A DNA stretch of 64,000 bases from a bacterium (GCA_022763185.1 JALEGL010000006.1:95793-159792); one strand, 5' to 3'; shown: positions 2,730-20,910, counted from the first letter of the stretch. The notes: generated from the letters alone by a model not told the origin. Numbers and translations: made by a program.

Positions 2730-3776
2730 ATGTTAAATAATATCAAAGGTTTAGTTTTTAATTCAATACTTGTAGTGTTTGCAATGCTTTATTCTGGATG
2801 TGATCAAAGCGGAAAAAGTCATGATCAAACGCATGCGCATACCAATGAGCAGAGTCATGCTCATGAACAACTGGAAGGCAATGTTAAAGTAGATGGTTCC
2901 AGTACCGTTTTCCCGATTACCGAAGCCATGGCTGAAGAGTTTGGTAAAGAAAACCCCAGAGTTAGAGTGACTGTGGGTTTATCCGGTACCGGTGGGGGAA
3001 TGAAAAAATTTGTTGAAGGCGTGATTGATATCACAGGTGCTTCTCGTCCTATCAAAGCTTCTGAGATAAAAATGGCTGCGGAAAAAAACCGTGAGTTTGT
3101 TGAGTTGCCGGTGGCCTATGATGGTATTGCTGTTGTGGTCAGTCACAAAAATACTTTTGCCAAAGATTTAACGGTTGCCGAGCTTAAGTCGATTTGGCAG
3201 CCAAACAGCAGCATTAAATTATGGAGTGACATCCGTAAAGATTGGCCTAAACAAGAGATTAAATTGTATGGACCTGGAGTGGATTCAGGAACTTTTGATT
3301 ACTTTACCAAAAGTATTGTGGGTAAGTCAGGCGCTACCCGTCCAGACTTTACTGCCAGTGAAGACGATAATGTATTGGTGCAAGGTGTGGCGGCAGACGA
3401 ATATGCTCTAGGCTATTTTGGTTTTGCTTATTGGATGGAAAACAAAGATAAATTAAACCGTGTGGCCATTGACAATGGCAATGGACCAGTTTTACCCAGT
3501 GAAGAAACCATTGAAAATGCCAGTTATGCGCCGCTATCCAGACCCATCTTTATTTATATCAGTAAAGATTCATTCACTAAAAAACCGGTAGATGCCTTTG
3601 TTAAGTTTTATATTGAAAACGCCAAAGAGTTGGTGGGGCAAGTGGGTTATGTGGCCTTTGGTGACGCTGTGTATGCAGCTATTTTAAAACGCTGGGAAAA
3701 CAAAGTTCTGGGCTCCAGTTTTGCCGGTGACTCAAAAGGCAGCGTTTTAGAGCGGGTTCAATCACAAGGCCAATAA
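2730..3776 (+). CDS. pstS: phosphate ABC transporter substrate-binding lipoprotein PstS
   Basis: Lipobox [15 protein letters not shown] and GSGGG-type PstS motifs, and first gene of a pstSCAB-phoU order. It carries an unusual His-rich linker ([18 protein letters not shown]) after the lipid Cys. Confidence 0.9.
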
Positions 3777-3781
3777 AAACG

Positions 3782-4708
3782 GTGCCCGACAACAGCTCAA
3801 ATAAAAAGCATTCATTTTCTGCAACTGCAGGAAAGAAAAGAACAGAAAAATTGGTTAAAATTTTTCTGTTTGTGTGCGCCTTTGTGTCTATTTTAACCAC
3901 AGTTGGCATTGTTTGGGTTTTGTTCAGTGAAAGTTTGCCTTTTTTTGGTAAAGTCAGTTTAAAAGAATTTTTCTTGGGAACACAATGGTATCCATTATTT
4001 GAACCCAAACGTTATGGTATTTTGCCATTGATTGGGGGTACTTTGATGATTGCTGTTGGGGCGGCCATTGTAGCTTTGCCCATAGGAACGGGCAGTGCCA
4101 TATATTTAAGTGAATATGCCAGCGCCAGACAAAGATCCATCCTCAAACCGTTTTTAGAAATTTTAGCTGGGATACCCACGGTGGTGTATGGTTATTTTGC
4201 CTTAACCGTGATTACTCCTTTTATCCAAAAAATATTTCCCAGCACCAATATTTTTAATGCTGCCAGTGGCGCCATAGTGGTTGGAATTATGATTATACCC
4301 ATGATTGCTTCTTTATCCGATGATGCCATGCGCTCAGTGCCAGATAGTTTACGAAACGCAGCCTTTGCATTGGGAGGAACAAAGTTGGATGTATCGGCTA
4401 AAGTTGTATTTCCTTCAGCCTTATCTGGGGTGGTGGCTTCTTATGTATTGGCTATTTCTAGAGCTATTGGTGAAACCATGGCCGTAACTCTGGCAGCAGG
4501 AGCGACACCAAAGTTGACCATCAATCCTCTAGAAAGTATTCAAACCATGACAGCATATATTGTGCAGGTCAGTTTGGGAGATACGCCGGCAGGCAGTGTT
4601 TCCTATCAGACTGTTTTTGCGGTTGGTCTAACCCTATTTTTAATGACCTTTGTTATGAATATTTTGGCTCAGAAATTTTTGCATAAGTTTAGGGAGCAGT
4701 ACGACTGA
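3782..4708 (+). CDS. pstC: phosphate ABC transporter permease PstC
   Basis: Multi-TM protein with an EAA-type loop (SLSDDAMRSVPDSLRNAAFALGGTK), GTG start, positioned after pstS. Confidence 0.9.
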   Translation: MPDNSSNKKHSFSATAGKKRTEKLVKIFLFVCAFVSILTTVGIVWVLFSESLPFFGKVSLKEFFLGTQWYPLFEPKRYGILPLIGGTLMIAVGAAIVALPIGTGSAIYLSEYASARQRSILKPFLEILAGIPTVVYGYFALTVITPFIQKIFPSTNIFNAASGAIVVGIMIIPMIASLSDDAMRSVPDSLRNAAFALGGTKLDVSAKVVFPSALSGVVASYVLAISRAIGETMAVTLAAGATPKLTINPLESIQTMTAYIVQVSLGDTPAGSVSYQTVFAVGLTLFLMTFVMNILAQKFLHKFREQYD

Positions 4709-5592
4709 TGGCTAAAAGTAAACGACAAGCCATGCAGTTTTCTAAAAGTATGGCATCACGACAATTGCAGGGAAAAGTGTTTCAGTATGTTTGTTTGGGC
4801 TGTGTTTGTGTTGGGATTGTTTTGTTGGCTATTCTTTTGTTTAGCGTTGCCATGCAAGGCTGGTCTTATATCAGCACTGACTTTTTCACAAACTTTCCAT
4901 CTCGCTTTGCAAAAAAGGCGGGCATTAAATCAGCACTGTATGGCAGTTTATGGTTGATTGTTTTAACCAGCTTAATTTCTGTACCTGTGGGTGTGGCATC
5001 CAGTATTTATTTGGAAGAGTTTGCTAAAAAAAATAAATTTACAGATTTTATTCGTCTTAATATTGCCAATTTGGCCGGGGTCCCCTCTATTGTTTATGGT
5101 ATGTTGGGCTTGGTTATTTTTGTCCGTTGGTTTGGCTTGCAAAGAAGCGTAATTTCTGGAGCGCTTACCATGTCCTTGCTTATTTTACCCACCATTATCA
5201 TTGCCTCGTCTGAAGCCTTAAAAGCTGTTCCCAATTCCATACGTTACGCTGCCTTGGCACTGGGTTCTACCCGTTGGCAAATGGTCCGAGATCATATTTT
5301 ACCGGCCAGTATACCAGGAATTATGACAGGAACTATTTTGGGTTTATCTAGAGCCGTGGGCGAAACAGCGCCTTTGATCATGATTGGTGCCTTAACTTAC
5401 GTTGCCTTTGTTCCTAAGAGTATCCATGACCCGTTTTCAGTGTTACCCATTCAAATTTTTAACTGGGCCTCTCGACCACAAATGGAGTTTCATTATCTTG
5501 CCGCAGCAGGAATCATTGTGTTATTGGTATTTTTATTAACCATGAATGCTTTAGCCATATGGATCAGGCATAAATTTGAAAAACGTAAGTAG
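4708..5592 (+). CDS. pstA: phosphate ABC transporter permease PstA
   Basis: Start overlaps the pstC stop (TGATG). EAA loop [22 protein letters not shown]; multi-TM. Confidence 0.9.
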
Positions 5593-5600
5593 ATAGAACA

Positions 5601-6365
5601 ATGGAAGATAACAAAAAACAACATATTATTAAAATCAAAGACCTTTCCATCTATTATGGCGACTTTAAAGCCGTCAATCAAATTGACTTGGGGATTGATG
5701 AGCATAGTGTCACCGCTATTATTGGTCCCAGTGGCTGTGGAAAAAGTACCTTGTTGCGCTCCTTGAATCGTATGAATGACTTTATTTCATCGGTGCGTTG
5801 TGAGGGAGATGTTCAATTTCAAGAGGAGTCTATTTTTTCAAATACGGTAGACGTGGTTGATTTGAGAAGAAAAATAGGGATGGTCTTTCAAAAACCCAAT
5901 CCCTTTCCAAAATCCATTTATAAAAATGTTGCTTGGGGACCTTCAGTCAACGGTTACAAAGGTAATTTAGATCAATGTGTTGAAAGAGCGTTAAAACGAG
6001 CAGCCCTGTGGGATGAGGTTAAAGACAAGCTGGATCAAGATGGCTTGTCATTGTCTGGTGGTCAGCAACAACGTTTGTGTATTGCAAGAGCTTTAGCCAT
6101 GGAGCCGGAAGTTATTTTAATGGATGAACCTTGTTCAGCGTTGGATCCCATTTCTACCAGTCGGGTTGAAGATTTGTTGATAGAATTAAAGCAAGACTAT
6201 ACCATTGTTATCGTGACCCACAGCATGCAACAGGCAGCTCGGGTATCGGATAAAACAGCCTTTATGTATCAGGGGGACTTGGTAGAGTATGGAGAAACCA
6301 AAAAAATCTTTACCCGTCCTGATAAAAAACAAACAGAAGATTATGTGACAGGAAAGTTTGGGTAG
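5601..6365 (+). CDS. pstB: phosphate ABC transporter ATP-binding protein PstB
   Basis: Walker [10 protein letters not shown], signature [14 protein letters not shown], Walker B ILMDEP, PstB-typical LNRMND. Confidence 0.95.
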
Positions 6366-6368
6366 ACC

Positions 6369-7040
6369 ATGCAAAGACATTTACACAGAGAATTAGACAA
6401 CATTAAAAAAGACCTTTTATTTGTAGGGTCTTTGGTTAAAGACAGCGTTGAAAAAGCCATTGTTGCTTTTAATGAAAGCAACACCGAGCTTGCTGATGAA
6501 GTCATTGCCCAAGATAAAAAAATTGACGCACGAGAAGTAGAAATAGAAGAAGAGTGCTTAAAGCTTTTAGCCTTACACCAGCCAGTAGCTGAAGATTTGC
6601 GTTTTATTACAGCAGTGATGAAAATTAACAATGCGCTTGAAAGTATGGGTGATAGCGCAACCAGTATTTCCAGACGATGTTTGCATTATGCTAAGCGTGC
6701 ACCAATTGCCATTCCAGATGAATTGAGTCAAATGTCAGAGAAGACAGTCAACATGATTGAACAAACCCTAAAGGCGTTCTTTCAAAAAGACGATGTTTTG
6801 GCTAAAGAAGTTATTAAATTAGATGATGATGTCGATGACTTGCAAGCAGATATTTTGTCCAAGCTTAAAAATATCATGAAAAATGATGCCAATCATATTT
6901 CTGTGGCTCTAGATGTCTTTACCATCACGAGACGTTTAGAAGGTATTGCTGACTTAGCAACCAACATTTGTGAGGATATCATTTACATGGTCAAAGGTGA
7001 GATTGTTAGACATCAGCGCAAAGAGATTGAGTCTGAGTAA
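6369..7040 (+). CDS. phoU: phosphate signalling complex protein PhoU
   Basis: 223 aa with a two-repeat PhoU layout (D..ID..E.. motifs: DKKIDAREVEIEEECLKLLALHQPVAEDLR; second repeat DDDVDDLQADI). Sits directly after pstB. Confidence 0.9.
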   Translation: MQRHLHRELDNIKKDLLFVGSLVKDSVEKAIVAFNESNTELADEVIAQDKKIDAREVEIEEECLKLLALHQPVAEDLRFITAVMKINNALESMGDSATSISRRCLHYAKRAPIAIPDELSQMSEKTVNMIEQTLKAFFQKDDVLAKEVIKLDDDVDDLQADILSKLKNIMKNDANHISVALDVFTITRRLEGIADLATNICEDIIYMVKGEIVRHQRKEIESE

Positions 7041-10710: not shown

Positions 10711-11592
10711 ATGCCCAACAGTATGACAGGATTTGGTAAGGCCAGCATAAGAGTCAAAAATTATGAATACACATGCGAAATAAGATCTGTCAATAGTCGC
10801 TACCGAGATGTAAAATGTACATGTCCTAAAGATATGGTAGCGCTTGAACATAAAGTAGAAAAAATGATTCAGAACTATTTTTCAAGGGGAAAGTTTAGTG
10901 TTGTGTTGCAAAGAAACAGTTTATCAAGACAGAAAAAAATCAGTTTTGAAGAAAAAAGTATCATTGCGCATTGGAAAACCTTAGATGGGATAAGAAAAAA
11001 AATGGGTCTAAAAGAACCTTTAAACATGGAAGCTTTGATTCATATTGATCGAGGTATTTTTGTTAATAAAAAACCTCTAAAAAAAGATATTTATCAAATA
11101 GAAAAAAATTACTTAAAAGTCATGCAAAAAGGGCTAGATAACCTTAAAGAATCTCGTAAAAGAGAGGGTAAAGGTATAGAAAAAGTCATGCTTAAGCTGC
11201 AAAACAATGTAAACAAGTATGTTAAAAAAATTGAACAAGAGTTTAAGCGTTTTCAAAAAGGCTTAAGCAAAAAAATAAAAGTTAAACTGGCACAGTTACC
11301 TAAAGATTATGTCCAGGATAATAAAAAGTATGAAAGTGACCTGGTTTCACTTAAAGATAAAACCGATATCACAGAAGAATTGGATCGTTTGAGCATTCAT
11401 TTAAAACGGTTAAGAGTTTTGTTAACTACACAAGGTGTTGTTGGGCGTGAGATGGATTTTTTAATGCAAGAAATTAATCGTGAAATCAATACCATTGGCT
11501 CTAAATCATCAGAGGTGAAAATCAGCAATCAAGTGATCATGTTAAAAACCGATATGGAAAAATTAAGGGAGCAAGCGCAAAACCTTGAGTAA
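10711..11592 (+). CDS. yicC: YicC family stress-induced protein
   Basis: SMTGFGKA...EIRSVNSRYRD N-terminal motif, and a C-terminal ITEELDRLSIHLKRL...GREMDFLMQEINREINTIGSKS block. Conserved yicC-gmk-rpoZ order. Confidence 0.85.
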   Translation: MPNSMTGFGKASIRVKNYEYTCEIRSVNSRYRDVKCTCPKDMVALEHKVEKMIQNYFSRGKFSVVLQRNSLSRQKKISFEEKSIIAHWKTLDGIRKKMGLKEPLNMEALIHIDRGIFVNKKPLKKDIYQIEKNYLKVMQKGLDNLKESRKREGKGIEKVMLKLQNNVNKYVKKIEQEFKRFQKGLSKKIKVKLAQLPKDYVQDNKKYESDLVSLKDKTDITEELDRLSIHLKRLRVLLTTQGVVGREMDFLMQEINREINTIGSKSSEVKISNQVIMLKTDMEKLREQAQNLE

Positions 11593-12187
11593 GAATGAAA
11601 AAATAGCAGTAATCTCAGCAGCATCCGGTGCCGGAAAAACTACCGTGGTGAATCGTTTGTTGAAGCAAGATCAACGGTTTTCTAGAGTAATTACCCACAC
11701 AACCAGAGAAAAACGACCTGGTGAGAAAAACGCTGTAGATTATCACTTTGTTAGCAAGGATGAATTTGAGCAAATGATAGCTCAAGATGCTTTCGTTGAG
11801 TGGGCAAAAGTCTATGACAATTACTACGGGACTTCAAAGCAAGGGATAGCGGACATTATTGCCCAGGGAAAGCATGCCTTGCTGGTCATAGAGTGGCAAG
11901 GAGCCAAAAATATCAAAAAGCTTTATCCAAATGCCCAGTTTATTTTAATGTTGCCGCCCTCTATGGAAGAGTTAAAAAGCAGAATTTCTGGAAGAGGTGG
12001 GGATGTAAAGGATATTACTCAAAGAATTGAGTTGGCCACGCATGAAATTAAACAGATGTTATGGTACGATCAGGTTATCATCAATGATGATGTTGATCAG
12101 TGTGTAAAAGATTTGATCTTAGCTTTAAATGATGAGGGTGCTTTCTCAATGGATCAACAAAAAGAACGCATTCAAAGTTTTATATGA
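11585..12187 (+). CDS. gmk: guanylate kinase
   Basis: P-loop SAASGAGKTT, TTREKRPGEKNAVDYHFVSKDEF and FVEWAKVYDNYYGT motifs. TTG start overlaps the yicC stop. Confidence 0.9.
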   Translation: MSKNEKIAVISAASGAGKTTVVNRLLKQDQRFSRVITHTTREKRPGEKNAVDYHFVSKDEFEQMIAQDAFVEWAKVYDNYYGTSKQGIADIIAQGKHALLVIEWQGAKNIKKLYPNAQFILMLPPSMEELKSRISGRGGDVKDITQRIELATHEIKQMLWYDQVIINDDVDQCVKDLILALNDEGAFSMDQQKERIQSFI

Positions 12188-12272
12188 CTTTAGGTGTTTC
12201 GTATATCTTATACCAAGCATAAAAAGCATAAGGCTGTTGACAAAACTTTAAAAAAGTATAGAAAAGGCTGCT

Positions 12273-12488
12273 ATGGCAAGAATTTCAATTGAAGATTGTT
12301 TAGATAAATTACAAAATCGTTTTGCGTTGGTGCATTTAGCATCAGAGAGAGCCCGCCAATTGGCCAGAGGTTCAAACCGTTTGATTATCACTAAAAATAA
12401 AGATATAGTCACTTCTTTGCGTGAAATTGCCAGCGGTCGCATTAAGACCAAAAAAGAGCTCGACGAAACCGTCATTGAGAGCAAATAA
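12273..12488 (+). CDS. rpoZ: DNA-directed RNA polymerase subunit omega
   Basis: MARISIEDCLDKLQNRFALVHLASERARQL is the canonical RpoZ N-terminus; 71 aa. Confidence 0.9.
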   Translation: MARISIEDCLDKLQNRFALVHLASERARQLARGSNRLIITKNKDIVTSLREIASGRIKTKKELDETVIESK

Positions 12489-12650: not shown

Positions 12651-13760
12651 ATGGGTAAAAAGTTTGGCGCCTATGAGGTTGAGCGCAAAGTTGCCATTGG
12701 GGGCATGGCTGAGATTTATAAAGCCAAAGATGTTTCAGGCCAAGCTGTGGCCATTAAAAAAATTCACCCAAGTCTAGCCAGCCAAGAAAAATTTGTACAA
12801 ATGTTTTTGGACGAAGTCCGTATTGTTATTCAATTGGATCATCCTAATATTGTGCAGTTGATGGATTTTGGTTTGGTAGAGGGAGCTTATTATTTTTCCA
12901 TGGAATGGATGGATGGCAAAGCTCTATCGGCGGTGACCAATGAACAAAAAAGAGTTAATAAGCTGATGCCCATTGATGTGGCCCTGATCATGATGATGGA
13001 TATTTGCGATGGTTTATTTTATGCCCACTCCAAAGAAGACCGATACAAGCGCCCCTTAAATATTATTCATAGAGATATGAGCCCGCCCAATATCTTGGTC
13101 AATTTAGGCGGAGTGTTCAAAATCACAGACTTTGGTATTGCGCAAGTTCGGGACAAAAATTTATTGACTCAACCTGGGATTATTAGAGGCAAGTTCAGCT
13201 ACATGTCCCCTGAGCAATCTTTGGGTAAGCCTTTGGATCATCGTTCAGATCAATTCAGTATTAATATTATATTTTATGAACTGTTGACCAACCACGCCCT
13301 ATTTCTGCGCAACAGTGAAATAGAAACCCTGCAAGCAGTTAGAAAATGCGATATTCCACCCTTAAAACAGTTTAGAAACAATGTTCCTGCCCAGTTAGAG
13401 GCTATCATTCGCAGAGGTTTAAGTCTGGATAGAAACAAACGTTTTACCAATGCCTATGAAATGAAACAGGCCATTGCCAAAGTATACGAAGAAAACTTCC
13501 CCAACAGCAGTCGAGAAAATGTGGTGAATTACTTTAATCAACTGTTTCCAGATATGCATTATACCTTGTCCATGCACTCAATAGAGGAAGATTCGCATTA
13601 TTTACGTAAAGCACGAATTGCTCAAGCTAAAGTGGCCAAGCAGAAGTCTTTTAAATTTAATCCTCAACCCTTCACACATCCCTTGAGCATGACCTTGCTT
13701 ATGAGTATAGGGACTGTTTTGTTGCTGGAGTTGAGTTTGTTTTTATTAAGTCAGCTGTAA
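12651..13760 (+). CDS. Ser/Thr protein kinase with a C-terminal membrane anchor
   Basis: Hanks motifs: VAIKKI, HRDMSPPNIL, ITDFGIA, YMSPEQ. C-terminal hydrophobic segment LSMTLLMSIGTVLLLELSLFLL. Confidence 0.85.
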   Translation: MGKKFGAYEVERKVAIGGMAEIYKAKDVSGQAVAIKKIHPSLASQEKFVQMFLDEVRIVIQLDHPNIVQLMDFGLVEGAYYFSMEWMDGKALSAVTNEQKRVNKLMPIDVALIMMMDICDGLFYAHSKEDRYKRPLNIIHRDMSPPNILVNLGGVFKITDFGIAQVRDKNLLTQPGIIRGKFSYMSPEQSLGKPLDHRSDQFSINIIFYELLTNHALFLRNSEIETLQAVRKCDIPPLKQFRNNVPAQLEAIIRRGLSLDRNKRFTNAYEMKQAIAKVYEENFPNSSRENVVNYFNQLFPDMHYTLSMHSIEEDSHYLRKARIAQAKVAKQKSFKFNPQPFTHPLSMTLLMSIGTVLLLELSLFLLSQL

Positions 13761-13869
13761 CTTTGCCTTGATTGCAAAGTGTTTTAGTTAGCCAACGGTT
13801 GACAGTAAAAGTTGATCCATGCTAGATCTTTTGATCAATGCGCAACTGGGGAAATAAACATAACAAAAA

Positions 13870-14219
13870 ATGTTCATTGTTTGTATGTGCAGTTTTTTTA
13901 TTCACCTTAATTTTCTGCGTTTTTTCATAGGCATGATCATCATCACGAAACCGAGCACATCTGCTATAGCAATACTAAGCAGAGTAAGCAGTATATTAAA
14001 GACTTTTCAGAGCAAGATTCTTTTATAAGTGATCATGACTGTTATTTATGCGTACTTTTATCCAACCATCATGCTTATGAATTTTTAAGTCAGCCTTTAC
14101 GAGTCAATTTTTTAAAAGACATTCATAATGCGCTTAGACAACAAAATACAAGTTACATTCATCTCTCCTGTCTTTTTAAAGCACCTAAAAACTCCCCACC
14201 CTTATTTCTCATGGGGTAA
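13870..14219 (+). pseudogene. frame-interrupted paralog of the 17367-17681 gene (small exported His-rich, C-x-L-C peptide, DUF2946-like)
   Basis: Frame 1 from ATG 13870 reads MFIVCMCSFFIHLNFLRFF. In the -1 frame from 13926 it continues HRHDHHHETEH...SDHDCYLCVLLS...KAPKNSPPLFLMG* (stop 14217-14219). The two parts join at the T6 run 13920-13925. Joined, the product parallels the paralog's ...LPFFHRHEHIH...RHECGLCTFLLS...SRAPPQYF. Neither part reaches 60 aa with a start codon, so the region is blank in the ORF track. Confidence 0.5.
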
Positions 14220-14425
14220 AGCATCGTGTTCTATATGCTGCAGTGCTAAGTAAAATGCTTAAGTCTTTCCCCCTCAACTTAACTTAAATATTTTTTAAAG
14301 CTCCTGTGCCATAGGGCATTGGTGCTAATCATTGGATGAGTTGTTGTTATAGCAACAGCTGTAAATGTTTATGCTTAATCTTAAGAAGAGAAAACTGAAG
14401 AATAAGTTTTAGTTTGGAGAAATAA

Positions 14426-14899
14426 ATGAAAAAAATAACAGTATGTTTACTGATTGTATTATCAATACAAAGTATTGGCTTTGCTCAAAGTTCACGTTTG
14501 GAAAATATTGAAGCCATTAAACAAACGGTTTTTGATATGTATTCGAGTGAATTTGATGCAACAAATTATGATCAATTGCAAAAATGGATCGTTTACGGGC
14601 TTGGTGAAAGGTCAACACCCATGCATAGTGAGCATCGCCCTGCAATGGTCTATATTGTTAACGGCAGTACAATCGTGAAGCATTATTATGTTTTATATAT
14701 CGATGGTTTAGGCTACTCAAGCCAATACTGTGATTGCTGTCATATTGAAATGCAGACATCTGGTGGAGGGCTAATTGCGCATTGTCAGGCCGTGTGTACA
14801 ACACCGCCTTATACTGAAGTAGGGCAATTAACAAAGCTTTTACCCTTCATTAATAGGAATGATAGCTTAGAACTTGTTCGTTATCCATCCAGACCATAG
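14426..14899 (+). CDS. secreted Cys-rich protein of unknown function
   Basis: Signal peptide MKKITVCLLIVLSIQSIGFA|QSS, a GGAG RBS upstream, and a Cys cluster YCDCCHIEMQTSGGGLIAHCQAVC. I recognise no family. Confidence 0.55.
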   Translation: MKKITVCLLIVLSIQSIGFAQSSRLENIEAIKQTVFDMYSSEFDATNYDQLQKWIVYGLGERSTPMHSEHRPAMVYIVNGSTIVKHYYVLYIDGLGYSSQYCDCCHIEMQTSGGGLIAHCQAVCTTPPYTEVGQLTKLLPFINRNDSLELVRYPSRP

Positions 14900-14918
14900 A
14901 TTGACTGAGGGAAGAGCA

Positions 14919-15515
14919 ATGTTAGCATTAAAAAGATTTTTTATAGTGGGCGTTAGTTTATCGCTGGTTCATTGCTCTTCCAATCAAAAGAGTTTGGAAG
15001 CAGTTTTTGAAGAAAAAAACTATGCCCAAAAAATCAGTCATTTAGAGTCAAAAATAGTTCAACTCAATGAGCAAATTGAGTATTCACGGCATGAAGTTGA
15101 TCATGAAGAGCATGGTGAAGAAAGAGAAGAGCACAGTCATGAACACGGCCATGAAGAAAGTGATGCTTCTCTTACGGAAATAGAAATTTTGAAACTTTTA
15201 CAAAAACTAAACAATAAGGTTATGGTTTTAGAACAAAAACTGGCTCAAGGTGAAAATCAAGTCAGTGATGAAGTGATCAAACGGCAGGTTTTAGAAGTGG
15301 CGCAAAAAACTTTAGCGGATCATCCAGAGGTAGGACAAAGCTATATTACCAATCCCGATAATATCGTTATCGAAAAAAATAGTGATCAAGCCTGGCAAGT
15401 GAAAATACGTTTTAAAATCAATGCACAAGATTCAGATATTTATAATGCTCAAATGCTTTGTTTTAATGAAAATAATAATGTGACATGTCGAGATCTGGAA
15501 ATTGAAGCGGAATAG
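14919..15515 (+). CDS. exported (lipoprotein-like) His/Glu-rich protein, C-x8-C family member 1
   Basis: Start moved to ATG 14919, preceded by GAGGGAAGAG. Signal MLALKRFFIVGVSLSLVHC, then SLEA, the tract HEVDHEEHGEEREEHSHEHGHEESD, and a C-terminal MLCFNENNNVTC (C-x8-C). Full-length paralog of 19395-19925. Confidence 0.6.
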   Translation: MLALKRFFIVGVSLSLVHCSSNQKSLEAVFEEKNYAQKISHLESKIVQLNEQIEYSRHEVDHEEHGEEREEHSHEHGHEESDASLTEIEILKLLQKLNNKVMVLEQKLAQGENQVSDEVIKRQVLEVAQKTLADHPEVGQSYITNPDNIVIEKNSDQAWQVKIRFKINAQDSDIYNAQMLCFNENNNVTCRDLEIEAE

Positions 15516-15578
15516 AGTTGTTGTTTTTTGTAGTATGAATTCTCAACTTTTTTAAAAGAACATGATAGGTCACTAGCC

Positions 15579-16514
15579 ATGCAAAGAAAAATAAGTATCG
15601 ATAGTGTATTGACTGGGGTTGTGTTCTGCCTGCTTTGCGGCGCCTATTTTAATACAGTGCAAGCAAAAGCACTGAATATTATTACAAGCACCAGTACCCT
15701 AGAAGCTATTGTAAAACAAATAACAAGCAAAGACCAAGTGACCGCATTGGTTAAAGGTTCACAAGATGCGCATTATATTCAGGCAAAGCCATCCTACATT
15801 GCAAAATTAAGAAAAGCGGATCTTTTGATTTCCATAGGCTTGGGTTTGGAAGATACATGGTTGAACAAGATTATTTTAAGTTCGCGCAATGTAGATTTGC
15901 AGTCCGGTAAAAAAGGCCGTTTGGTGGCGGGTCAGGTGGTAACTCCTATTGAGGTTCCGCAAGGAACAGTGACTCGAGCCATGGGCGATGTTCACCCAGA
16001 AGGTAATCCGCATATTCTTCTTGATCCGATTCGTGTCCTTGATGTTGTAAAAGCTATTGAGAAAAAACTCAGTCAGCTTAACCCAGAAAACAGCACAGCG
16101 TATCAAAAAAATGTGCTGCGCTTTGAACAAAATCTAGATTCAAAGATGAAGCAATGGAAGACACAATTATCATCCCTAAAGAACAAATCTGTGGTCACTT
16201 ATCATACAACCCTGAACTATTTTTTACAGCGCTTTGGTCTTGAGCATGCAGCCTCTATTGAACCCAAGCCCGGCATTCCGCCAACGGCAAAGCATATTCA
16301 AAGCTTAATGACTCAAATACAACAAAAAAAATTATCTTGCATATTAATGGAAAGCTTTTTTGATCCAACACCGGCCAAGACCATTGCTCAAAAAACCAAA
16401 ATACGGGTGGTGAATGTTGCACCTGAATATGGTGGTTTAAAAAAACAAAGCAGCTACTTTAGCTGGATGGATGATGTGGTAGGCGCAGCCTTAAACTGTT
16501 TACAAGCTCAATGA
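15579..16514 (+). CDS. metal (Zn/Mn/Fe-type) ABC transporter periplasmic substrate-binding protein, ZnuA/TroA family
   Basis: Signal peptide, then motifs typical of cluster-9 metal SBPs: QDAHYIQAKPS, GDVHPEGNPHILLDP, VVTYHTTLNYFLQRFGL, EPKPGIPPTAKHIQSL. It has no His-rich loop, so metal specificity is open. Confidence 0.8.
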   Translation: MQRKISIDSVLTGVVFCLLCGAYFNTVQAKALNIITSTSTLEAIVKQITSKDQVTALVKGSQDAHYIQAKPSYIAKLRKADLLISIGLGLEDTWLNKIILSSRNVDLQSGKKGRLVAGQVVTPIEVPQGTVTRAMGDVHPEGNPHILLDPIRVLDVVKAIEKKLSQLNPENSTAYQKNVLRFEQNLDSKMKQWKTQLSSLKNKSVVTYHTTLNYFLQRFGLEHAASIEPKPGIPPTAKHIQSLMTQIQQKKLSCILMESFFDPTPAKTIAQKTKIRVVNVAPEYGGLKKQSSYFSWMDDVVGAALNCLQAQ

Positions 16515-17314
16515 TGGAAGCGATTCATTTTTTAGCAGCGCCATTGCTGATGTGTTTAATTCTGGTGGGTATCCATTGTTATTTAGGGATACATGTTCTT
16601 GCGCGTGGTGTGATATTTGTGGACCTGGCTTTGGCGCAAGTTGCAGCATTAGGGGCTACCGTGCCTTTTTTCTTTTTTCATGAACCATCAGGGGTCGTTC
16701 AATATTTTTTTTCACTTGGCTTTACCTTGACGGCAGCAGCTTTTTTAACCCTATCCAATCGGTTTAAACAAACATTATCACAGGAAGCGGTGATAGGTGT
16801 TTTGTTTGCGTTTTGTTCTGCCAGCTTAATTGTTTTGGCCGATCAAATGCCACACGGTTCAGAGCATGTCAAACACAGCATGATTGGCCAATTGTTGTGG
16901 ACGACCTGGCCAGATGTTCTCAAAGTGTTGATTATTTATTCTGGGGTATCCATTGTTTATTTTATTTTTCGGCAGCCGTTGATGGCCAATAGTTTGGGTA
17001 CAGCATCGCGTTGGAGTATGGATTTGCTTTTTTATGGATTGTTTGCGGTGGTTATTACAAGCTCAGTGCAAGTGGCGGGGATACTTATTGTTTTTTCATT
17101 TTTAATTGTTCCAGCCTTGCTCAGTGCAGTATTTTTTAAAGATGCAGCCAAGCGTTTATGGTTTGGTTGGGGCATAGGAACAATACTGAGTGTTTTTGGC
17201 ATGTTTGGCTCATATTATTGGAACTTGCCCTCAGGGGCATTTATTGTAGGAGTCTTTACCTGTGTTCCCTTACTGTTGATTTTAATCAAAGCTATTTTTC
17301 TCCATAAGACTTGA
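16511..17314 (+). CDS. metal ABC transporter permease (ABC-3/ZnuB family)
   Basis: 267 aa with about 8 TM segments. Start overlaps the SBP stop (ATGA). Size and hydrophobic pattern match ZnuB/MntB/TroC-type permeases. Confidence 0.8.
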   Translation: MMEAIHFLAAPLLMCLILVGIHCYLGIHVLARGVIFVDLALAQVAALGATVPFFFFHEPSGVVQYFFSLGFTLTAAAFLTLSNRFKQTLSQEAVIGVLFAFCSASLIVLADQMPHGSEHVKHSMIGQLLWTTWPDVLKVLIIYSGVSIVYFIFRQPLMANSLGTASRWSMDLLFYGLFAVVITSSVQVAGILIVFSFLIVPALLSAVFFKDAAKRLWFGWGIGTILSVFGMFGSYYWNLPSGAFIVGVFTCVPLLLILIKAIFLHKT

Positions 17315-17366
17315 TGCCCAAAAGAGTGGCTTGAACAAACTTTAATAGTATGTTATGTGATGCGTC

Positions 17367-17681
17367 ATGTTGAAAAGGTTTATACATTACCTTTTGCTTG
17401 CTGCCTTTATGCTGCCGTTTTTTCATCGGCATGAGCATATACATGCTTGTCATGAGACCTATGAAACGTATGATAATGCTATCCATACAGCCAATCATGA
17501 TGACAGGCATGAGTGTGGTTTATGCACTTTTTTATTATCTTCTAAAAGACCATTTCAGCAGACCGTCCATTTTTCGCCTGAATTAGAGTTTTTTAAACTG
17601 AGCCTTGTTTCTCCATCTTCAAGGATAAAAAACATCCTTTACGGTATAGAGGACAGTCGAGCTCCCCCGCAATACTTTTGA
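17367..17681 (+). CDS. small exported His-rich C-x-L-C peptide (DUF2946-like)
   Basis: 104 aa: N-terminal hydrophobic segment, FFHRHEHIHACHE, RHECGLCTFLLS, C-terminal SRAPPQYF. From memory this resembles DUF2946-type proteins found beside metal uptake genes. Intact paralog of 13870-14219. Confidence 0.5.
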   Translation: MLKRFIHYLLLAAFMLPFFHRHEHIHACHETYETYDNAIHTANHDDRHECGLCTFLLSSKRPFQQTVHFSPELEFFKLSLVSPSSRIKNILYGIEDSRAPPQYF

Positions 17682-17817
17682 TTGGTTTTTTTAAGTAGAG
17701 CCAAATCAACCATCTACTTATTCTTCATTATTTTTTAAGGCATTAAGTGAAAGTATATAACTTTTATTTGTGTCTTTTAACCAAGAGTCTTGATGCAAAG
17801 ATCAAGCAAAGGTTTTT

Positions 17818-19056
17818 ATGAAACATGTTTTATTAAGGTGCGTGATTGCAATGTTGGGACTCTATGGTTTTAACAGCAGCGGGCAGACAAACATACAAAA
17901 CGCAGAAACAAAGTACATTGATTTATCTATCAACGCGTTATTATCCGTGGGTGGTTCAACGCTGGATGATGAGGCTTTAAGTTTTTTGCAAGCCGGCGGG
18001 CATGATCCTAATCGTAATGGGTTTAATTTACAATCGGTAGAGTTTTCTTTAACCGGTGCCGTAGATCATTATTTTACGGCAGAAACACACCTATTGTTTG
18101 GATTGAGTAGAGAAGGAGAGAGTTTTTTAGAATTAGAAGAAGCTTTTTTTAAAACCTTATCCATGCCTGGTGGTTTGGAGTTAAAAGGCGGTCAGTTCTT
18201 AACACAAATTGGACGCAGCAACCCTTATCACGTCCATGCCTGGAACTGGCAAGATCAACCCATTATTAATTCCAGAGTTCTGGGTGCAGATGGAATGCGC
18301 GGTTTGGGTGCACAGTTGGCCTGGCTGCTCCCAACATCATGGTATTCCCAAGTGTATTTATCTGCACAAAATGCAACGGGTGCAACCATGATCAGCTTTG
18401 CTGGAGCACAAGAGTCTGCGCTTGGGAGTCAAAATCTGGTGGACAGAGATGTTAACGGTCTAACGGAGTTGGTTTTTGCTTTGCGATGGGCCAACGGCTG
18501 GGATTTTTCTGATAGCGTGGCATCACGACTCGGTTTTTCATTGTTAACGGGACCCAACAGTGCCGGAGAAAATACCTTTACTCAAGTTTATGGGGTGGAC
18601 TATGTTTTAAAGTGGGTTCCATTAAATGCCCAAAGAGGCTGGCCATTTTTGACTTGGGAAAGCGAATTTTTATTAAGAAACTATCATGTTGACCCGGGTT
18701 TGAGTCAAAGTGATTTGGGTTTGCTTGATAGTAATATTCTTAACTTTGGGGGTACTTTAAGCGATTGGGGTTATTATTCTCAAGTGTTGTATGGCTTTCG
18801 TCCACGTTGGGCTGGAGGGATTCGATTTGAATATGCAAGTGGCAGTGAATCCTCTGTAGGGTTTAGAGATTTTGATCCATTTAGAGATGATCGTATTCGT
18901 GTTTCTCCCATGCTGGCCTTTTATCCCAGTGAATTTTCTAGAGTAAGATTACAGTACAATTATGACCAGGCCACGCACTTAGAAGAAATGCACGCGCATA
19001 GTCTGTGGTTGGGGTTAGAGTTTTTGTTTGGGGCACATCCAGCCCATGATTTTTAA
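17818..19056 (+). CDS. outer-membrane beta-barrel (porin-sized) protein of unknown family
   Basis: Signal peptide MKHVLLRCVIAMLGLYGF. Alternating amphipathic strands with aromatic girdle residues (YSQVYLSAQ, WESEFLLRNY, RVRLQYNYD, SLWLGLEFLFG) and a C-terminal ...HPAHDF ending in Phe. At 412 aa it is too small, and lacks a plug, for a TonB-dependent receptor. Confidence 0.6.
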   Translation: MKHVLLRCVIAMLGLYGFNSSGQTNIQNAETKYIDLSINALLSVGGSTLDDEALSFLQAGGHDPNRNGFNLQSVEFSLTGAVDHYFTAETHLLFGLSREGESFLELEEAFFKTLSMPGGLELKGGQFLTQIGRSNPYHVHAWNWQDQPIINSRVLGADGMRGLGAQLAWLLPTSWYSQVYLSAQNATGATMISFAGAQESALGSQNLVDRDVNGLTELVFALRWANGWDFSDSVASRLGFSLLTGPNSAGENTFTQVYGVDYVLKWVPLNAQRGWPFLTWESEFLLRNYHVDPGLSQSDLGLLDSNILNFGGTLSDWGYYSQVLYGFRPRWAGGIRFEYASGSESSVGFRDFDPFRDDRIRVSPMLAFYPSEFSRVRLQYNYDQATHLEEMHAHSLWLGLEFLFGAHPAHDF

Positions 19057-19072
19057 AGAAGGGGAGTCAGTC

Positions 19073-19405
19073 ATGTATAGAATTCAATGTTTATTTTTAA
19101 GTTTAGGTGTCTTTTTTGGTTCTTTAGCCCATGCCAAGGAGGTTGATATGTTTGTTCAGTCAGTGAACTTAAGCTTTGAAGCTTTAGAAAACAAACTTAG
19201 AACCAGAGATGCGGTATGGCTTAAAAAACATATTGTAGGATCGAACAGTGTTTATCTGCAAGGTAGGGTTGTGGTTAATTTACTTTTTCCTGATCAACGC
19301 AATTTTATGTTTTCCTGCCATGGAAATGATCAAAACTATCACTGCGATTTGGCAGAAGATAACAGAGACTTGCTTGAAGCTCTGGAGGCTAAAGATGAGA
19401 GCTAA
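19073..19405 (+). CDS. small secreted protein, C-x8-C family member 3 (no His tract)
   Basis: Start moved to ATG 19073, preceded by AAGGGGAG. Signal MYRIQCLFLSLGVFFGSLAHA|KE; C-terminal FMFSCHGNDQNYHC. Confidence 0.55.
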   Translation: MYRIQCLFLSLGVFFGSLAHAKEVDMFVQSVNLSFEALENKLRTRDAVWLKKHIVGSNSVYLQGRVVVNLLFPDQRNFMFSCHGNDQNYHCDLAEDNRDLLEALEAKDES

Positions 19406-19925
19406 TAACATTCTCAATAGTGTGGTTGCATTGTGTCTTTTGCAGCTATTTGCTTGCACAGGAATGCAGAGCACAGATTCGTTAGAAGCAATACGCGCTG
19501 TAAAGTCTTTACGACAAGATCAGAGTCTTGTGGAGCCTAAGGTCGATGATGGAGATGTAGAAGATCTTCATGCACATGATCACGAAGATAAAGCAAACAA
19601 GCATAGCGAAGATCAACACCAGGGAGATGATCATGGTGATGACCATGATCACAGCCAAGATCTCAAAAACTTAAGCATTGTTGAAATGGAAACTTGGTAT
19701 GACACTGTCAGTGAACAGCTTGTTGATCAACTGGAAAACAAAGATCTCAGACAACTGATTATCTGGCAAACGCAACAGAAAGTTTGGGCTAGGGCGGTAT
19801 TAAAAGATGCCAATCCAATGTTGTTTTTTTCATGTCAGGCGCATCAAGGCCATATTGATTGCCAAGCGGTTGAAAAAGATAAAGTTCCTGACATACCTGT
19901 CTTTGCAAACAAGGAGGATGAATGA
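19395..19925 (+). CDS. His/Asp-rich lipoprotein, C-x8-C family member 2
   Basis: Start moved to ATG 19395, preceded by GGAGG, overlapping the upstream stop. Lipobox LQLFAC, SLEA, the tract DLHAHDHEDKANKHSEDQHQGDDHGDDHDHSQD, and C-terminal LFFSCQAHQGHIDC. Confidence 0.6.
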   Translation: MRANNILNSVVALCLLQLFACTGMQSTDSLEAIRAVKSLRQDQSLVEPKVDDGDVEDLHAHDHEDKANKHSEDQHQGDDHGDDHDHSQDLKNLSIVEMETWYDTVSEQLVDQLENKDLRQLIIWQTQQKVWARAVLKDANPMLFFSCQAHQGHIDCQAVEKDKVPDIPVFANKEDE

Positions 19926-20560
19926 TGATAAAGTATAAGAATATATTGTGTTTAATTGTCATGGTTTTATGTGCAGCATGTAAGCCTCCTCAAACAAGGG
20001 ATGTTATTTCTAAACAACATAGGCAAAGTTATCAGTGTGGATTAGCCATGGCAGGCTTTGAGGCAGTTTTGAGTAAGGACAAAGAACATTTAAGGCTAAA
20101 ATTAAGTGATTTTGAACTGGACAGCAATGAACCACAAAGCCCTTTTTTGGAGTTTCAAGATTTAATGAAAAATACGGAATATCTGCTTTTTGAATCAACA
20201 GACCATAATAATGAGCAGCTTCATCACACTTGGCAACTGCTGGAGCTTAAGCAAGAAGGTGCAACAATTAAAACGCAAGCCATCGCTAAAGATATTCTAG
20301 AAACTCAAAATTTACGTATTGCACTGGTGAGGATTGCACTGCATGAAAACAATAGTCAACAGCCTGAGGGGCCTAGCCTTAGTTTTGCCGTTTATCAACA
20401 GTTGCGAGGTCAAAGTCAACCCAGTTGGTGTAAAGTTACAGCACCCGTGCAAATTGAACAGGATGGCAATGCATACCAAGTCCAAATTTTAAAATCAGCG
20501 CAAGCGCAAGTAGTGGCCAATGCGGATCACGGACATCCAGGGCATTCACATCAACATTAA
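19922..20560 (+). CDS. lipoprotein of unknown function with a C-terminal His tail
   Basis: ATG overlaps the upstream TGA. Lipobox VLCAAC. The C-terminus ends ADHGHPGHSHQH. Confidence 0.55.
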   Translation: MMIKYKNILCLIVMVLCAACKPPQTRDVISKQHRQSYQCGLAMAGFEAVLSKDKEHLRLKLSDFELDSNEPQSPFLEFQDLMKNTEYLLFESTDHNNEQLHHTWQLLELKQEGATIKTQAIAKDILETQNLRIALVRIALHENNSQQPEGPSLSFAVYQQLRGQSQPSWCKVTAPVQIEQDGNAYQVQILKSAQAQVVANADHGHPGHSHQH

Positions 20561-20640
20561 ATATAATTTATGTTTTAGGCCTAAGGAATAAACACTTAAA
20601 TTGCTTGCATTTATACAACAGTGGCGTTAACACCTTAGCC

Positions 20641-20910
20641 ATGGCTAAAGCATTAGATTCATTTGTAGATAAAGAAGTGGTGGCATGGTTATGTACACCC
20701 TTACCCACCAGTTATTTTGATAATATGCGTGACTTGCAAGTGCCGGTAGAAAGTATTTCTGGTAAAATTATAGCAGAAAAAAACTCCGGTTTGGTGTTTG
20801 AAATCAGTGCTGTAGGCAGCACTTTAATAAACTTGCAAAACGTTCCTGCGCAACAGATTTTTTTGCCTTTTCATAAAATTGATTCAATGCAATTTAAGGA
20901 TGCTTCATGA
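20641..20910 (+). CDS. small conserved-looking protein of unknown function, translationally coupled to pgk
   Basis: 89 aa from ATG 20641 (the track uses an upstream TTG). Its stop overlaps the pgk start (ATGA). No recognisable motif. Confidence 0.45.
   Translation: MAKALDSFVDKEVVAWLCTPLPTSYFDNMRDLQVPVESISGKIIAEKNSGLVFEISAVGSTLINLQNVPAQQIFLPFHKIDSMQFKDAS

Follow-up and report, generated by a model that had tools for sequence, protein, structure and literature searches.

The locus reported here is a cluster of ten genes for cell-envelope products in a 64,000-nucleotide stretch of low-GC bacterial DNA (~39% GC; assembly GCA_022763185.1, JALEGL010000006.1:95793-159792), which was analyzed over its whole length and is called the window below. 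The ten open reading frames (ORFs) all lie on the plus strand, between a Ser/Thr kinase gene (12651-13760) and pgk, which begins at 20907. They encode an outer-membrane barrel, a ZnuA-type metal-binding protein, an ABC-3-family permease, two short peptides (pep1 and pep6) and five accessory proteins (p2, p3, p8, p9 and p10). A preliminary description of the window had proposed these ten ORFs as a metal-handling system of the envelope; ORF calling recovered every one of them, in place or displaced by a few bases. We read the cluster, with a probability of roughly 0.6, as two tandem transcription units, each headed by a metal-sensing leader peptide of the CruR/DUF2946 type, which together would constitute a zinc-acquisition pathway. 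Unit 1 would consist of pep1, p2, p3, ZnuA and ZnuB, and Unit 2 of pep6, the barrel, p8, p9 and p10. A metagenome-assembled Oligoflexia genome (GCA_035326705.1) is close kin of the window, with a barrel protein that is 90% identical and the same gene order; this 90%-related genome, L001 below, served as the comparison relative. The features of the locus are the following.

13760-13780, plus strand: terminator-like hairpin, a 7-bp stem followed by GTTTTAGTTA; a consensus match only, from a pattern scan
13799-13804, plus strand: TTGACA, a -35-like hexamer 5' of pep1, identical in the alignment with L001
13840-14219, plus strand: pep1, putative leader peptide, frame-broken (three-frame translation; intact orthologue in L001)
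14426-14899, plus strand: p2, secreted Cys-rich protein of 157 aa with a Sec signal peptide
14919-15515, plus strand: p3, His/Glu-tract lipoprotein with an atypical lipobox and C-x8-C
15579-16514, plus strand: ZnuA-type periplasmic metal-binding protein of 311 aa (Pfam ZnuA)
16511-17314, plus strand: ZnuB-like ABC-3-family permease (Pfam ABC-3)
17367-17681, plus strand: pep6, intact putative leader peptide of 104 aa, CruR/DUF2946-like
17658-17669, plus strand: R-A-P-P codons (cga gct ccc ccg), predicted arrest site of pep6 from its sequence
17818-19056, plus strand: outer-membrane barrel of 412 aa, 16 strands in the AlphaFold2 (AF2) model
19073-19405, plus strand: p8, small secreted protein of 110 aa with FSC-x8-C
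19395-19925, plus strand: p9, His/Asp-tract lipoprotein of 176 aa with a C-terminal FSC-x8-C domain
19922-20560, plus strand: p10, His-tailed lipoprotein of 212 aa, ending HGHPGHSHQH

All ten products carry a signal peptide, a lipobox, an anchor or several membrane spans. The translations of p2, ZnuA, the barrel and p8 begin with Sec signal peptides; p9 and p10 have the lipoboxes LFAC and CAAC, p3 has an atypical one, LVHC, where its relatives have normal lipoboxes, ZnuB is polytopic, and both peptides start with a hydrophobic anchor. The early statement that export extends to all products encoded from the kinase to the glycolytic genes holds for these ten and fails for a 101-aa ORF (20605-20910) between p10 and pgk, which has no signal peptide and lies outside the cluster. 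Histidine makes up 9.5% of pep1 and pep6 and 5.1-5.7% of p3, p9 and p10, against a background of 2.3% (s.d. 1.2) in 46 window proteins. In p2 it is Cys that is abundant (3.8%), with no enrichment in His, and the His content of ZnuA, ZnuB and the barrel is ordinary. The FFHRH and CxLC motifs are shared by pep1 and pep6, and C-x8-C by p3, p8 and p9. Stop-to-start overlaps were correctly described, and join ZnuA to ZnuB (16511-16514), p8 to p9 (19395-19405) and p9 to p10 (19922-19925). Pfam and NCBIfam searches gave significant Pfam matches within the cluster for ZnuA (E 1e-53) and ABC-3 (E 4e-20) only. As had been anticipated, p2, p3, p8, p9, p10 and the barrel fell into no significant family in these searches; the peptides, which had also been left without a family, fall near DUF2946, pep6 below the threshold.

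The conserved unit within the cluster comprises four genes, for the peptide, the barrel, ZnuA and ZnuB, and not the ten first proposed. The barrel family counts more than 1000 homologues at E <= 1e-3, with ~50% identity across phyla, and a scan with one genome per species yielded at least 505 loci. ZnuA adjoins the barrel in 76 of 85 loci, usually in the order peptide, barrel, ZnuA, ZnuC, ZnuB, and the loci that combine the two span Planctomycetota, Binatia, Myxococcota, NC10, Nitrospirae, Gammaproteobacteria, Verrucomicrobiota and others. The Oligoflexia lineage has this order rearranged, with ZnuA-ZnuB moved 5' and preceded by a second leader peptide and the p2-p3 pair. Conservation of the neighborhood is limited to this recurrent core, p2, p3, p8, p9 and p10 being confined to few lineages. 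These distributions bear out the proposed link between an outer-membrane channel and a ZnuA/ABC-3 system in metal handling. The preliminary description had not recognized the system as a described one, and our search of the literature agrees with it, since neither a ZnuA-linked porin in Gram-negative bacteria nor a DUF2946-type peptide 5' of Znu genes was found described there.

The barrel is predicted to adopt a 16-strand porin fold with a long loop 3. Its AF2 model, with a predicted local distance difference test (pLDDT) score of 77, has 16 strands and a loop at residues 129-160 that includes a short helix, and Foldseek aligned it at probability 1.0 and template modeling (TM) scores of 0.5-0.6 to OprP, OmpC, Omp32 and DcaP. 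The barrel thus resembles the 16-strand porins (OprP/OprO, OmpC/OmpF, Omp32 and DcaP) in its predicted strand number and in the long loop 3 with a short helix. Unlike them, it shows no sequence similarity to the porin families of Pfam (BBP2 only, at E 0.024, below threshold; nothing in NCBIfam), and it has invariant motifs of its own and an operon link to a metal ABC system. The 120 homologues listed likewise have no precomputed Pfam match. The family has invariant His, Asp and Glu columns, the stretch H62-D63-P64 in the first loop is likewise invariant, and the family motifs are GGHDP, NPxHxHAWxWQDQP in loop 3 and GAHPAHxF/Y at the C-terminus. With loops assigned from the secondary structure of the AF2 model, the invariant His residues lie in loop 1 (H62), strand 3 (H91), loop 3 (H138 and H140) and the C-terminal tail (H407 and H410).

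Longer members of the barrel family possess an N-terminal coiled coil, a feature also found in DcaP, and the source names 'Lpp' and 'DUF4200' probably reflect it. The public names of P0005 ('TonB-dependent receptor') and of P0083/P0097 ('murein-binding lipoprotein Lpp', 'DUF4200 domain-containing protein') look wrong or uninformative. We considered and rejected the identity of a TonB-dependent receptor suggested by the NCBI name of P0005, as there is no Plug or TonB_dep_Rec match in Pfam and the strands number 16, not 22. The barrel shares with ZnuD and other Zur-regulated TonB-dependent zinc receptors a genetic tie between outer-membrane entry and ZnuABC-type uptake, and differs from them in its 16 strands, in its 412-aa length and in having neither a plug domain nor a TonB box. 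Because the plug domain and TonB box are missing, transport through it is presumably passive.

The two peptides had been taken for parts of a relay. Both carry all the hallmarks of the CruR/CutF leader peptides, a described family, and they are probably leader peptides of the CruR/DUF2946 type, which regulate the downstream genes and do not carry metal. Members of DUF2946/CruR are defined by CXXC and RAPP at a spacing of ~45 residues, in the first gene of an operon and with a long intergenic region after it (Roy et al., PMC9426467), and ribosome arrest at RAPP has been demonstrated experimentally for CruR (PMC9426467, PMC12992588). In pep6 the anchor is followed by F-F-H20-R-H-E-H24, C50-G-L-C53, 44 residues, R98-A-P-P101, Q-Y-F and the stop codon, and 136 nt separate the gene from that of the barrel; the corresponding gap between pep1 and p2 is 206 nt. 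Against the Pfam DUF2946 model (PF11162) pep6 scores 14.2 bits (E 0.079), below the gathering cut-off of 23.7. A CruR/DUF2946-like peptide is encoded directly 5' of the barrel in 44 of the 73 non-redundant loci in which 400 nt or more of sequence precede a barrel homologue. The distance from CxxC to RxPP is 44-46 residues in 36 of these 44 peptides; RAPP is the arrest-type motif of 28 peptides, RSPP and RGPP account for 8 each, and a tail of three residues is the most frequent. In an alignment of 31 peptides the invariant or nearly invariant columns are two His just after the anchor, two Cys, and R-x-P-P, and 18 of the 31 match DUF2946 at E <= 1 (best E 8e-6). By these sequence features the pep6 group is a divergent branch of DUF2946 and not a curated member, and its invariant H, H, C and C appear to resemble a Cys2His2 zinc site. 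Because of the motifs, their spacing, the census and the long gaps, the peptides are best read as cis-acting sensors heading two transcription units, a layout that also accounts better for the supposed symmetry of two modules on either side of the ZnuA/ZnuB pair.

pep1 is a paralogue of pep6 (blastp E 2e-4) with an anchor, FFHRHDHHH, C-Y-L-C, 46 residues, N-S-P-P and a five-residue tail, NSPP replacing RxPP in both the window and L001. It had been described as frame-interrupted at 13870-14219; the interruption is real and the start is to be corrected to the ATG at 13840. In the alignment with L001, which has an intact orthologue of 133 aa, the window shows a single surplus base somewhere from about 13903 to 13915, which probably belongs to the T-run at 13911-13914; either an error in sequencing a homopolymer or a mutation of very recent date could account for the break.

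Compared with CruR (Bordetella pertussis Bp2923) and CutF (Rhodobacter capsulatus), pep6 has the same N-terminal export or anchor segment, CxxC, ~45-residue spacer and RAPP about three residues from the C-terminus, and the same position as first gene of a metal operon with a long intergenic gap 3' of it. It differs in the invariant HxxxH just after the anchor and in heading a porin and ZnuA(C)B operon instead of an operon for a TonB-dependent transporter, PepSY protein or cuproenzyme; its probable ligand is Zn and not Cu, and the window holds two copies, one with NSPP. A further lead for pep6, Leptospira LIC10965, was discarded, the match to the NCBIfam 'LIC10965 family' being weak (E 0.006) and the neighbor being no porin/Znu operon. 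In Leptospira interrogans, LIC10965 adjoins the TonB-dependent receptor LIC10964, which has been modeled on the zinc receptor ZnuD, and both genes are induced in the rat dialysis-chamber model. At another barrel locus, L063 (4069-5976), a second peptide, ending in ...RAPPR, directly follows the barrel-ZnuA-ZnuB operon and heads genes for HupE_UreJ_2 and DUF6488 proteins, another tandem pair of leader-peptide-headed metal units laid out like that of the window.

Zinc is the best-supported metal for this pathway, at somewhat better than even odds. The window ZnuA matches Pfam ZnuA at E 1e-53, and its best matches in the Protein Data Bank are Zn-binding ZnuA and AdcA proteins. H65, H145 and H209 align with the three canonical His ligands of Salmonella ZnuA, and together with H139 they are conserved in 68-69 of 69 barrel-linked ZnuAs. 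The window protein has no His-rich loop. We discarded the idea that the His-tract lipoproteins substitute for this loop, as barrel-linked ZnuAs are loop-less in ATPase-less and ZnuC-containing clades alike. Recurrent neighbors of the barrel operon are Fur-family genes (12 loci), ZIP transporters (12) and CobW/COG0523 GTPases (9), as well as a cation-efflux protein; most such loci come from Binatia, so the counts are not independent. We also weighed for zinc the p2-p3 pair of L090, which adjoins a divergent Fur-family gene.

Two loci of relatives bring copper genes into view. In L086, from a marine Bdellovibrionota relative, genes for a CsoR-family repressor (Trns_repr_metal) and an HMA-domain protein (4477-6234) lie 1-3 kb 5' of a peptide-barrel-ZnuA-ZnuB module, a possible link to copper. 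In L089 (231-5662) a p2-p3-like pair stands tail to tail with genes for a multicopper oxidase, a MerR-family regulator and a Cu-type P-type ATPase. One could suppose from these loci that the pathway handles copper or another thiophilic metal, with leader peptides that sense Cu as CruR and CutF do, and a porin and binding protein that supply or buffer it. Such a role would suit the response of CruR and CutF to Cu through CXXC, the CsoR-family and HMA genes 5' of the module in L086, the CueR, CopA and multicopper oxidase genes beside the p2-p3-like pair in L089, and the richness of p2 in Cys. We consider it a serious rival to zinc, albeit an unlikely one: the all-His sites of cluster A-I binding proteins are typical of Zn, the recurrent neighbors are Fur-family, COG0523 and ZIP genes, the H-H-C-C set of the peptides looks like a Cys2His2 zinc site, and the copper genes of L086 and L089 form separate or convergent units.

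The permease, possibly independent of an ATPase, is the most novel part of the zinc pathway that we favor. ZnuB matches Pfam ABC-3 (PF00950) at E 3.9e-20 (72.9 bits against a cut-off of 20.1) and in HMMER aligns end to end with PsaC. That the ZnuA/ZnuB pair is without its ATPase, as the preliminary description had noted, was confirmed over the 64 kb, where no ZnuC-type ATPase is encoded and the ABC ATPases are PstB (5601-6365) and a fused exporter (50871-52703). PstB is the sole importer-type ABC ATPase of the window and belongs to a complete phosphate-uptake operon (2730-7040), with PstS (PBP_like_2), PstC and PstA (BPD_transp_1), PstB (ABC_tran) and PhoU.

The missing ATPase is a shared trait. 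In a tree of barrel-linked ZnuBs, 15 loci including the window form a clade set apart from ZnuC-containing loci, and its operon consists of peptide, barrel, ZnuA and ZnuB with no ZnuC. Its members come from Oligoflexia, Gamma- and Deltaproteobacteria, Nitrospirae, Verrucomicrobiota and Rhodospirillaceae. No ATPase gene occurs up to 8 kb downstream in nine inspected loci of this clade. Five further loci (L086-L088, L092 and L093), picked from the closest ZnuB homologues and lying on contigs of up to 2 Mb, all show the small ORF, barrel homologue, ZnuA and ABC-3 genes, and none has an ABC_tran gene within 9-10 kb. The sister clade has kept ZnuC between ZnuA and ZnuB in at least 34 loci, and the few members of the ZnuC-linked clade that seem to have no ZnuC are artefacts of the ORF filter. 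As judged from these gene contents, the ATPase-less state is a conserved property of the whole ZnuB clade. It coincides with a change in the permease itself. The EAA motif reads D-P-x-m-A-x-A-x-G in ZnuC-linked relatives and S-F-D-E-L-L-A-K-A-M-G in PsaC; the window ZnuB and the 120 homologues closest to it all have a 7-residue deletion there, which takes out the core of this coupling helix, and the gap is seen also in the HMMER alignment to PsaC and in the clade consensus. Close members of the permease clade with this deletion number at least 120 and are spread over Bdellovibrionota, Gammaproteobacteria, Verrucomicrobiota and other groups.

How such a permease would be energized can be read in two ways. 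It may work without any ABC ATPase, which we regard as a tentative possibility at odds somewhat below even. Alternatively, the system is a canonical ZnuABC whose ATPase is encoded elsewhere, the permease docking a ZnuC-type or shared ABC ATPase through a remodeled interface and drawing on the usual energy supply; this, too, is possible and short of an even chance. Split ABC operons and shared ATPases are a familiar feature of bacteria, the permease matches ABC-3 over its full length and aligns with PsaC from end to end, and our coverage amounts to 64 kb of the window genome and at most 10 kb on either side in the relatives. A distant ATPase is harder to reconcile with the absence of ZnuC from every locus of a coherent clade (the 15 and 5 of 5 further loci), with its retention between ZnuA and ZnuB in the sister clade (at least 34 loci), and with a deletion precisely of the conserved DPxxAxAxG (EAA) core, the part in contact with the ATPase. 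The fuller proposition of an ATPase-independent metal transporter of the ABC-3 fold, channel-like or driven by an ion gradient, fed by a His-lined porin and switched by a zinc-sensing nascent peptide in place of or alongside Zur, we hold to be doubtful at present.

The likeness to ZnuABC, AztABCD and PsaABC lies in the ZnuA-fold binding protein with three canonical His and in the ABC-3-family permease that aligns with PsaC over its full length. The system differs from them in the clade-wide absence of an operon ATPase gene, the deleted EAA coupling-helix core, the window ZnuA with no His-rich loop and a fourth invariant His (H139), and a genetic tie to a dedicated outer-membrane barrel. The TRAP and TTT transporters are similar in principle only, since there a periplasmic binding protein feeds an ATPase-free membrane transporter; their membrane-protein folds are unrelated, and the comparison applies only if the permease is indeed independent of an ATPase.

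The accessory proteins p2, p3, p8, p9 and p10 gave nothing significant in Pfam or NCBIfam, and their roles, which we suppose to be the capture or buffering of periplasmic metal, are the least secure part of the model. p2 has the Cys pattern YCDCCH...HC...C, and the p2-p3 gene pair recurs in two other lineages, at L090 (35% identity) and L089. In p3 a disordered His/Glu tract (residues 63-81) separates a long helix from a second one, and the C-terminus is formed by a cystatin-like domain with C181-x8-C190, which AF2 models at pLDDT 88-96 as one helix packed on a four-strand sheet. A Foldseek search with this fold returned only generic cystatin/NTF2-like matches, and an exhaustive HMMER search of 1.84 billion clusters found six related representatives of the C-terminal domain besides its own cluster, each of which is a lipoprotein that combines this domain with a helical stalk and a short His/acid patch. 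p9 and p3 are distant paralogues (L001 p9 against p3, 26% identity over 165 aa, E 2e-8), and p8, found only in close Oligoflexia relatives, is a weak relative of the p3/p9 C-terminal domain. For p10, 5.8 billion clusters contained three proteins, its own and two relatives of the same lineage, which carry an internal His/Asp-rich insert. In the AF2 model the cysteines of the C-x8-C pair, C181 and C190, sit on the adjacent strands E175-184 and E187-197, and because the pair bridges adjacent strands of a confidently modeled cystatin-like domain it most probably forms a structural disulfide rather than a metal site; the candidates for metal binding are instead the disordered His/Glu and His/Asp tracts.

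The composition of the cluster might be taken to mean that all ten products, peptides included, form one stoichiometric relay from the outer to the inner membrane in which metal passes from protein to protein. Such a relay would suit products that are all exported or membrane-bound and for the most part rich in His or Cys, and that are encoded by closely spaced, overlapping genes. We find it very unlikely: in all their sequence features the peptides agree with a family of regulatory leader peptides, the core occurs in more than 80 other loci that do not have five of the ten genes, p10 and the p3 family have hardly any relatives, and the C-x8-C pair is most likely structural.

In the zinc-acquisition pathway that we propose, the porin-fold barrel, with His residues in its constriction loop and periplasmic C-terminus, would admit the metal across the outer membrane. 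The ZnuA-type protein, with its all-His site, would capture it in the periplasm and hand it to the ABC-3-fold permease, whose clade has lost the operon ATPase gene and the coupling-helix core. p3, p9 and p10 with their His/acid tracts, and Cys-rich p2, most likely concentrate or buffer periplasmic metal. The direction of regulation is taken by analogy with CruR. When metal is scarce, the ribosome would stall on the RAPP of pep6 and the downstream uptake genes would stay expressed; pep1 may stall likewise, provided that NSPP is able to arrest. With ample metal, HxxxH and CxxC of the nascent peptide would bind it, and release of the stall would end downstream expression, as has been demonstrated for CruR.

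CutF belongs to the same family and operates with the opposite sign, metal binding inducing the stall and turning the downstream genes on. With the logic of CutF the genes would be expressed in metal excess, and the cluster would buffer or detoxify, its His-rich lipoproteins serving as sinks. Half of the genes encode His- or Cys-rich periplasmic proteins able to sequester metal, and a cation-efflux gene stands beside some related loci, as a protective role would have it. The conserved core of the cluster, with porin, ZnuA and ABC-3 permease, is made of uptake parts, the Zur, COG0523 and ZIP neighbors belong to zinc-starvation responses, and a stem-loop shielding the ribosome-binding site of the barrel does not stand out (z = -1.6), all of which makes a protective role quite improbable.

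Regulatory elements in nucleic acid were sought by pattern scans and folding. The terminator-like hairpin directly 3' of the kinase gene is read as the cluster's upstream border. A promoter of pep1 is presumed from the -35-like hexamer; the pattern scan found no convincing -10 element for it, and promoter and terminator sites in that scan are no more frequent than in shuffled sequence. Scans and folding of the window intergenic regions identified no RNA or Rho element for a leader-peptide switch, masking of the ribosome-binding site is not clear in the folded pep6-barrel and pep1-p2 regions, and the four cluster intergenic regions contain no sizeable inverted repeats. A weak A/U-rich hairpin (AAGTAGA...TCTACTT) with a U-rich run lies at 17693-17736, 12 nt past the pep6 stop; it is kept in L001 with one A-U to G-C double change, and its folding energy is not better than that of shuffled sequence. 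The Zur- or Fur-type operators suggested upstream of the cluster genes were not found there: matches to the Zur-box pattern number 5 against 4.5 expected, none inside the cluster, the pattern being a proteobacterial one that may not be that of this lineage. In L090 (7000-9131) the Fur-family gene diverges from a three-gene unit for a p2-like protein, a p3-like protein and a 182-aa protein with no family match, and the intergenic region shared by Fur and p2 holds the palindrome AAATGCAAATAAATTGCATTT, which is absent from the window. L001 has an additional 336-aa gene (1674-2684) between rpoZ and the kinase gene, and another of 401 aa (11235-12440) between p10 and the small ORF before pgk; neither has a Pfam match or a counterpart in the window, and indels therefore flank the cluster.

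Several observations weigh against a zinc-acquisition pathway under leader-peptide control. On the regulatory side, pep6 stays below the DUF2946 threshold (14.2 against 23.7 bits), pep1 has NSPP in place of RxPP and is frame-broken in the assembly, the folded intergenic regions have no convincing switch structure (z -1.6 for pep6-barrel, -2.2 for pep1-p2), and the window yielded no Zur-like operator. As to the metal, both CruR and CutF sense copper, copper genes stand near relatives of the cluster (CsoR and HMA in L086; CueR, CopA and multicopper oxidase in L089), and the Zur, COG0523 and ZIP neighbors derive mostly from the one class Binatia. The positions of the barrel loop His residues rest on a model with a pLDDT of 77, the absence of ZnuC covers the 64-kb window and a copy may lie elsewhere in the genome, and every locus comes from an uncultured organism.

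The elements of the cluster, a DUF2946 arrest peptide, a porin and a ZnuA/ABC-3 pair, each represent a variant of an established type, and it is their combination that was not found described; the permease clade with the deleted coupling helix could be new in kind. A route for zinc through the outer membrane is established in only a few bacteria, TonB-dependent receptors such as ZnuD being the main one, and a widespread porin family with conserved His residues, encoded beside ZnuA in many phyla, could provide passive zinc entry where such receptors are missing. Sensing by nascent peptides of the CruR/CutF type has so far been shown for copper only. The peptides of the Znu operons would extend it to a second metal, and leader peptides before Znu-type operons would point to control of zinc uptake at the level of translation. 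The findings may also help to annotate better thousands of metagenomic proteins that are now called 'hypothetical', 'TonB-dependent receptor' or 'metal ABC transporter permease'. The permease clade, for its part, offers a test case for asking if a type II ABC importer fold can function independently of ATP hydrolysis.

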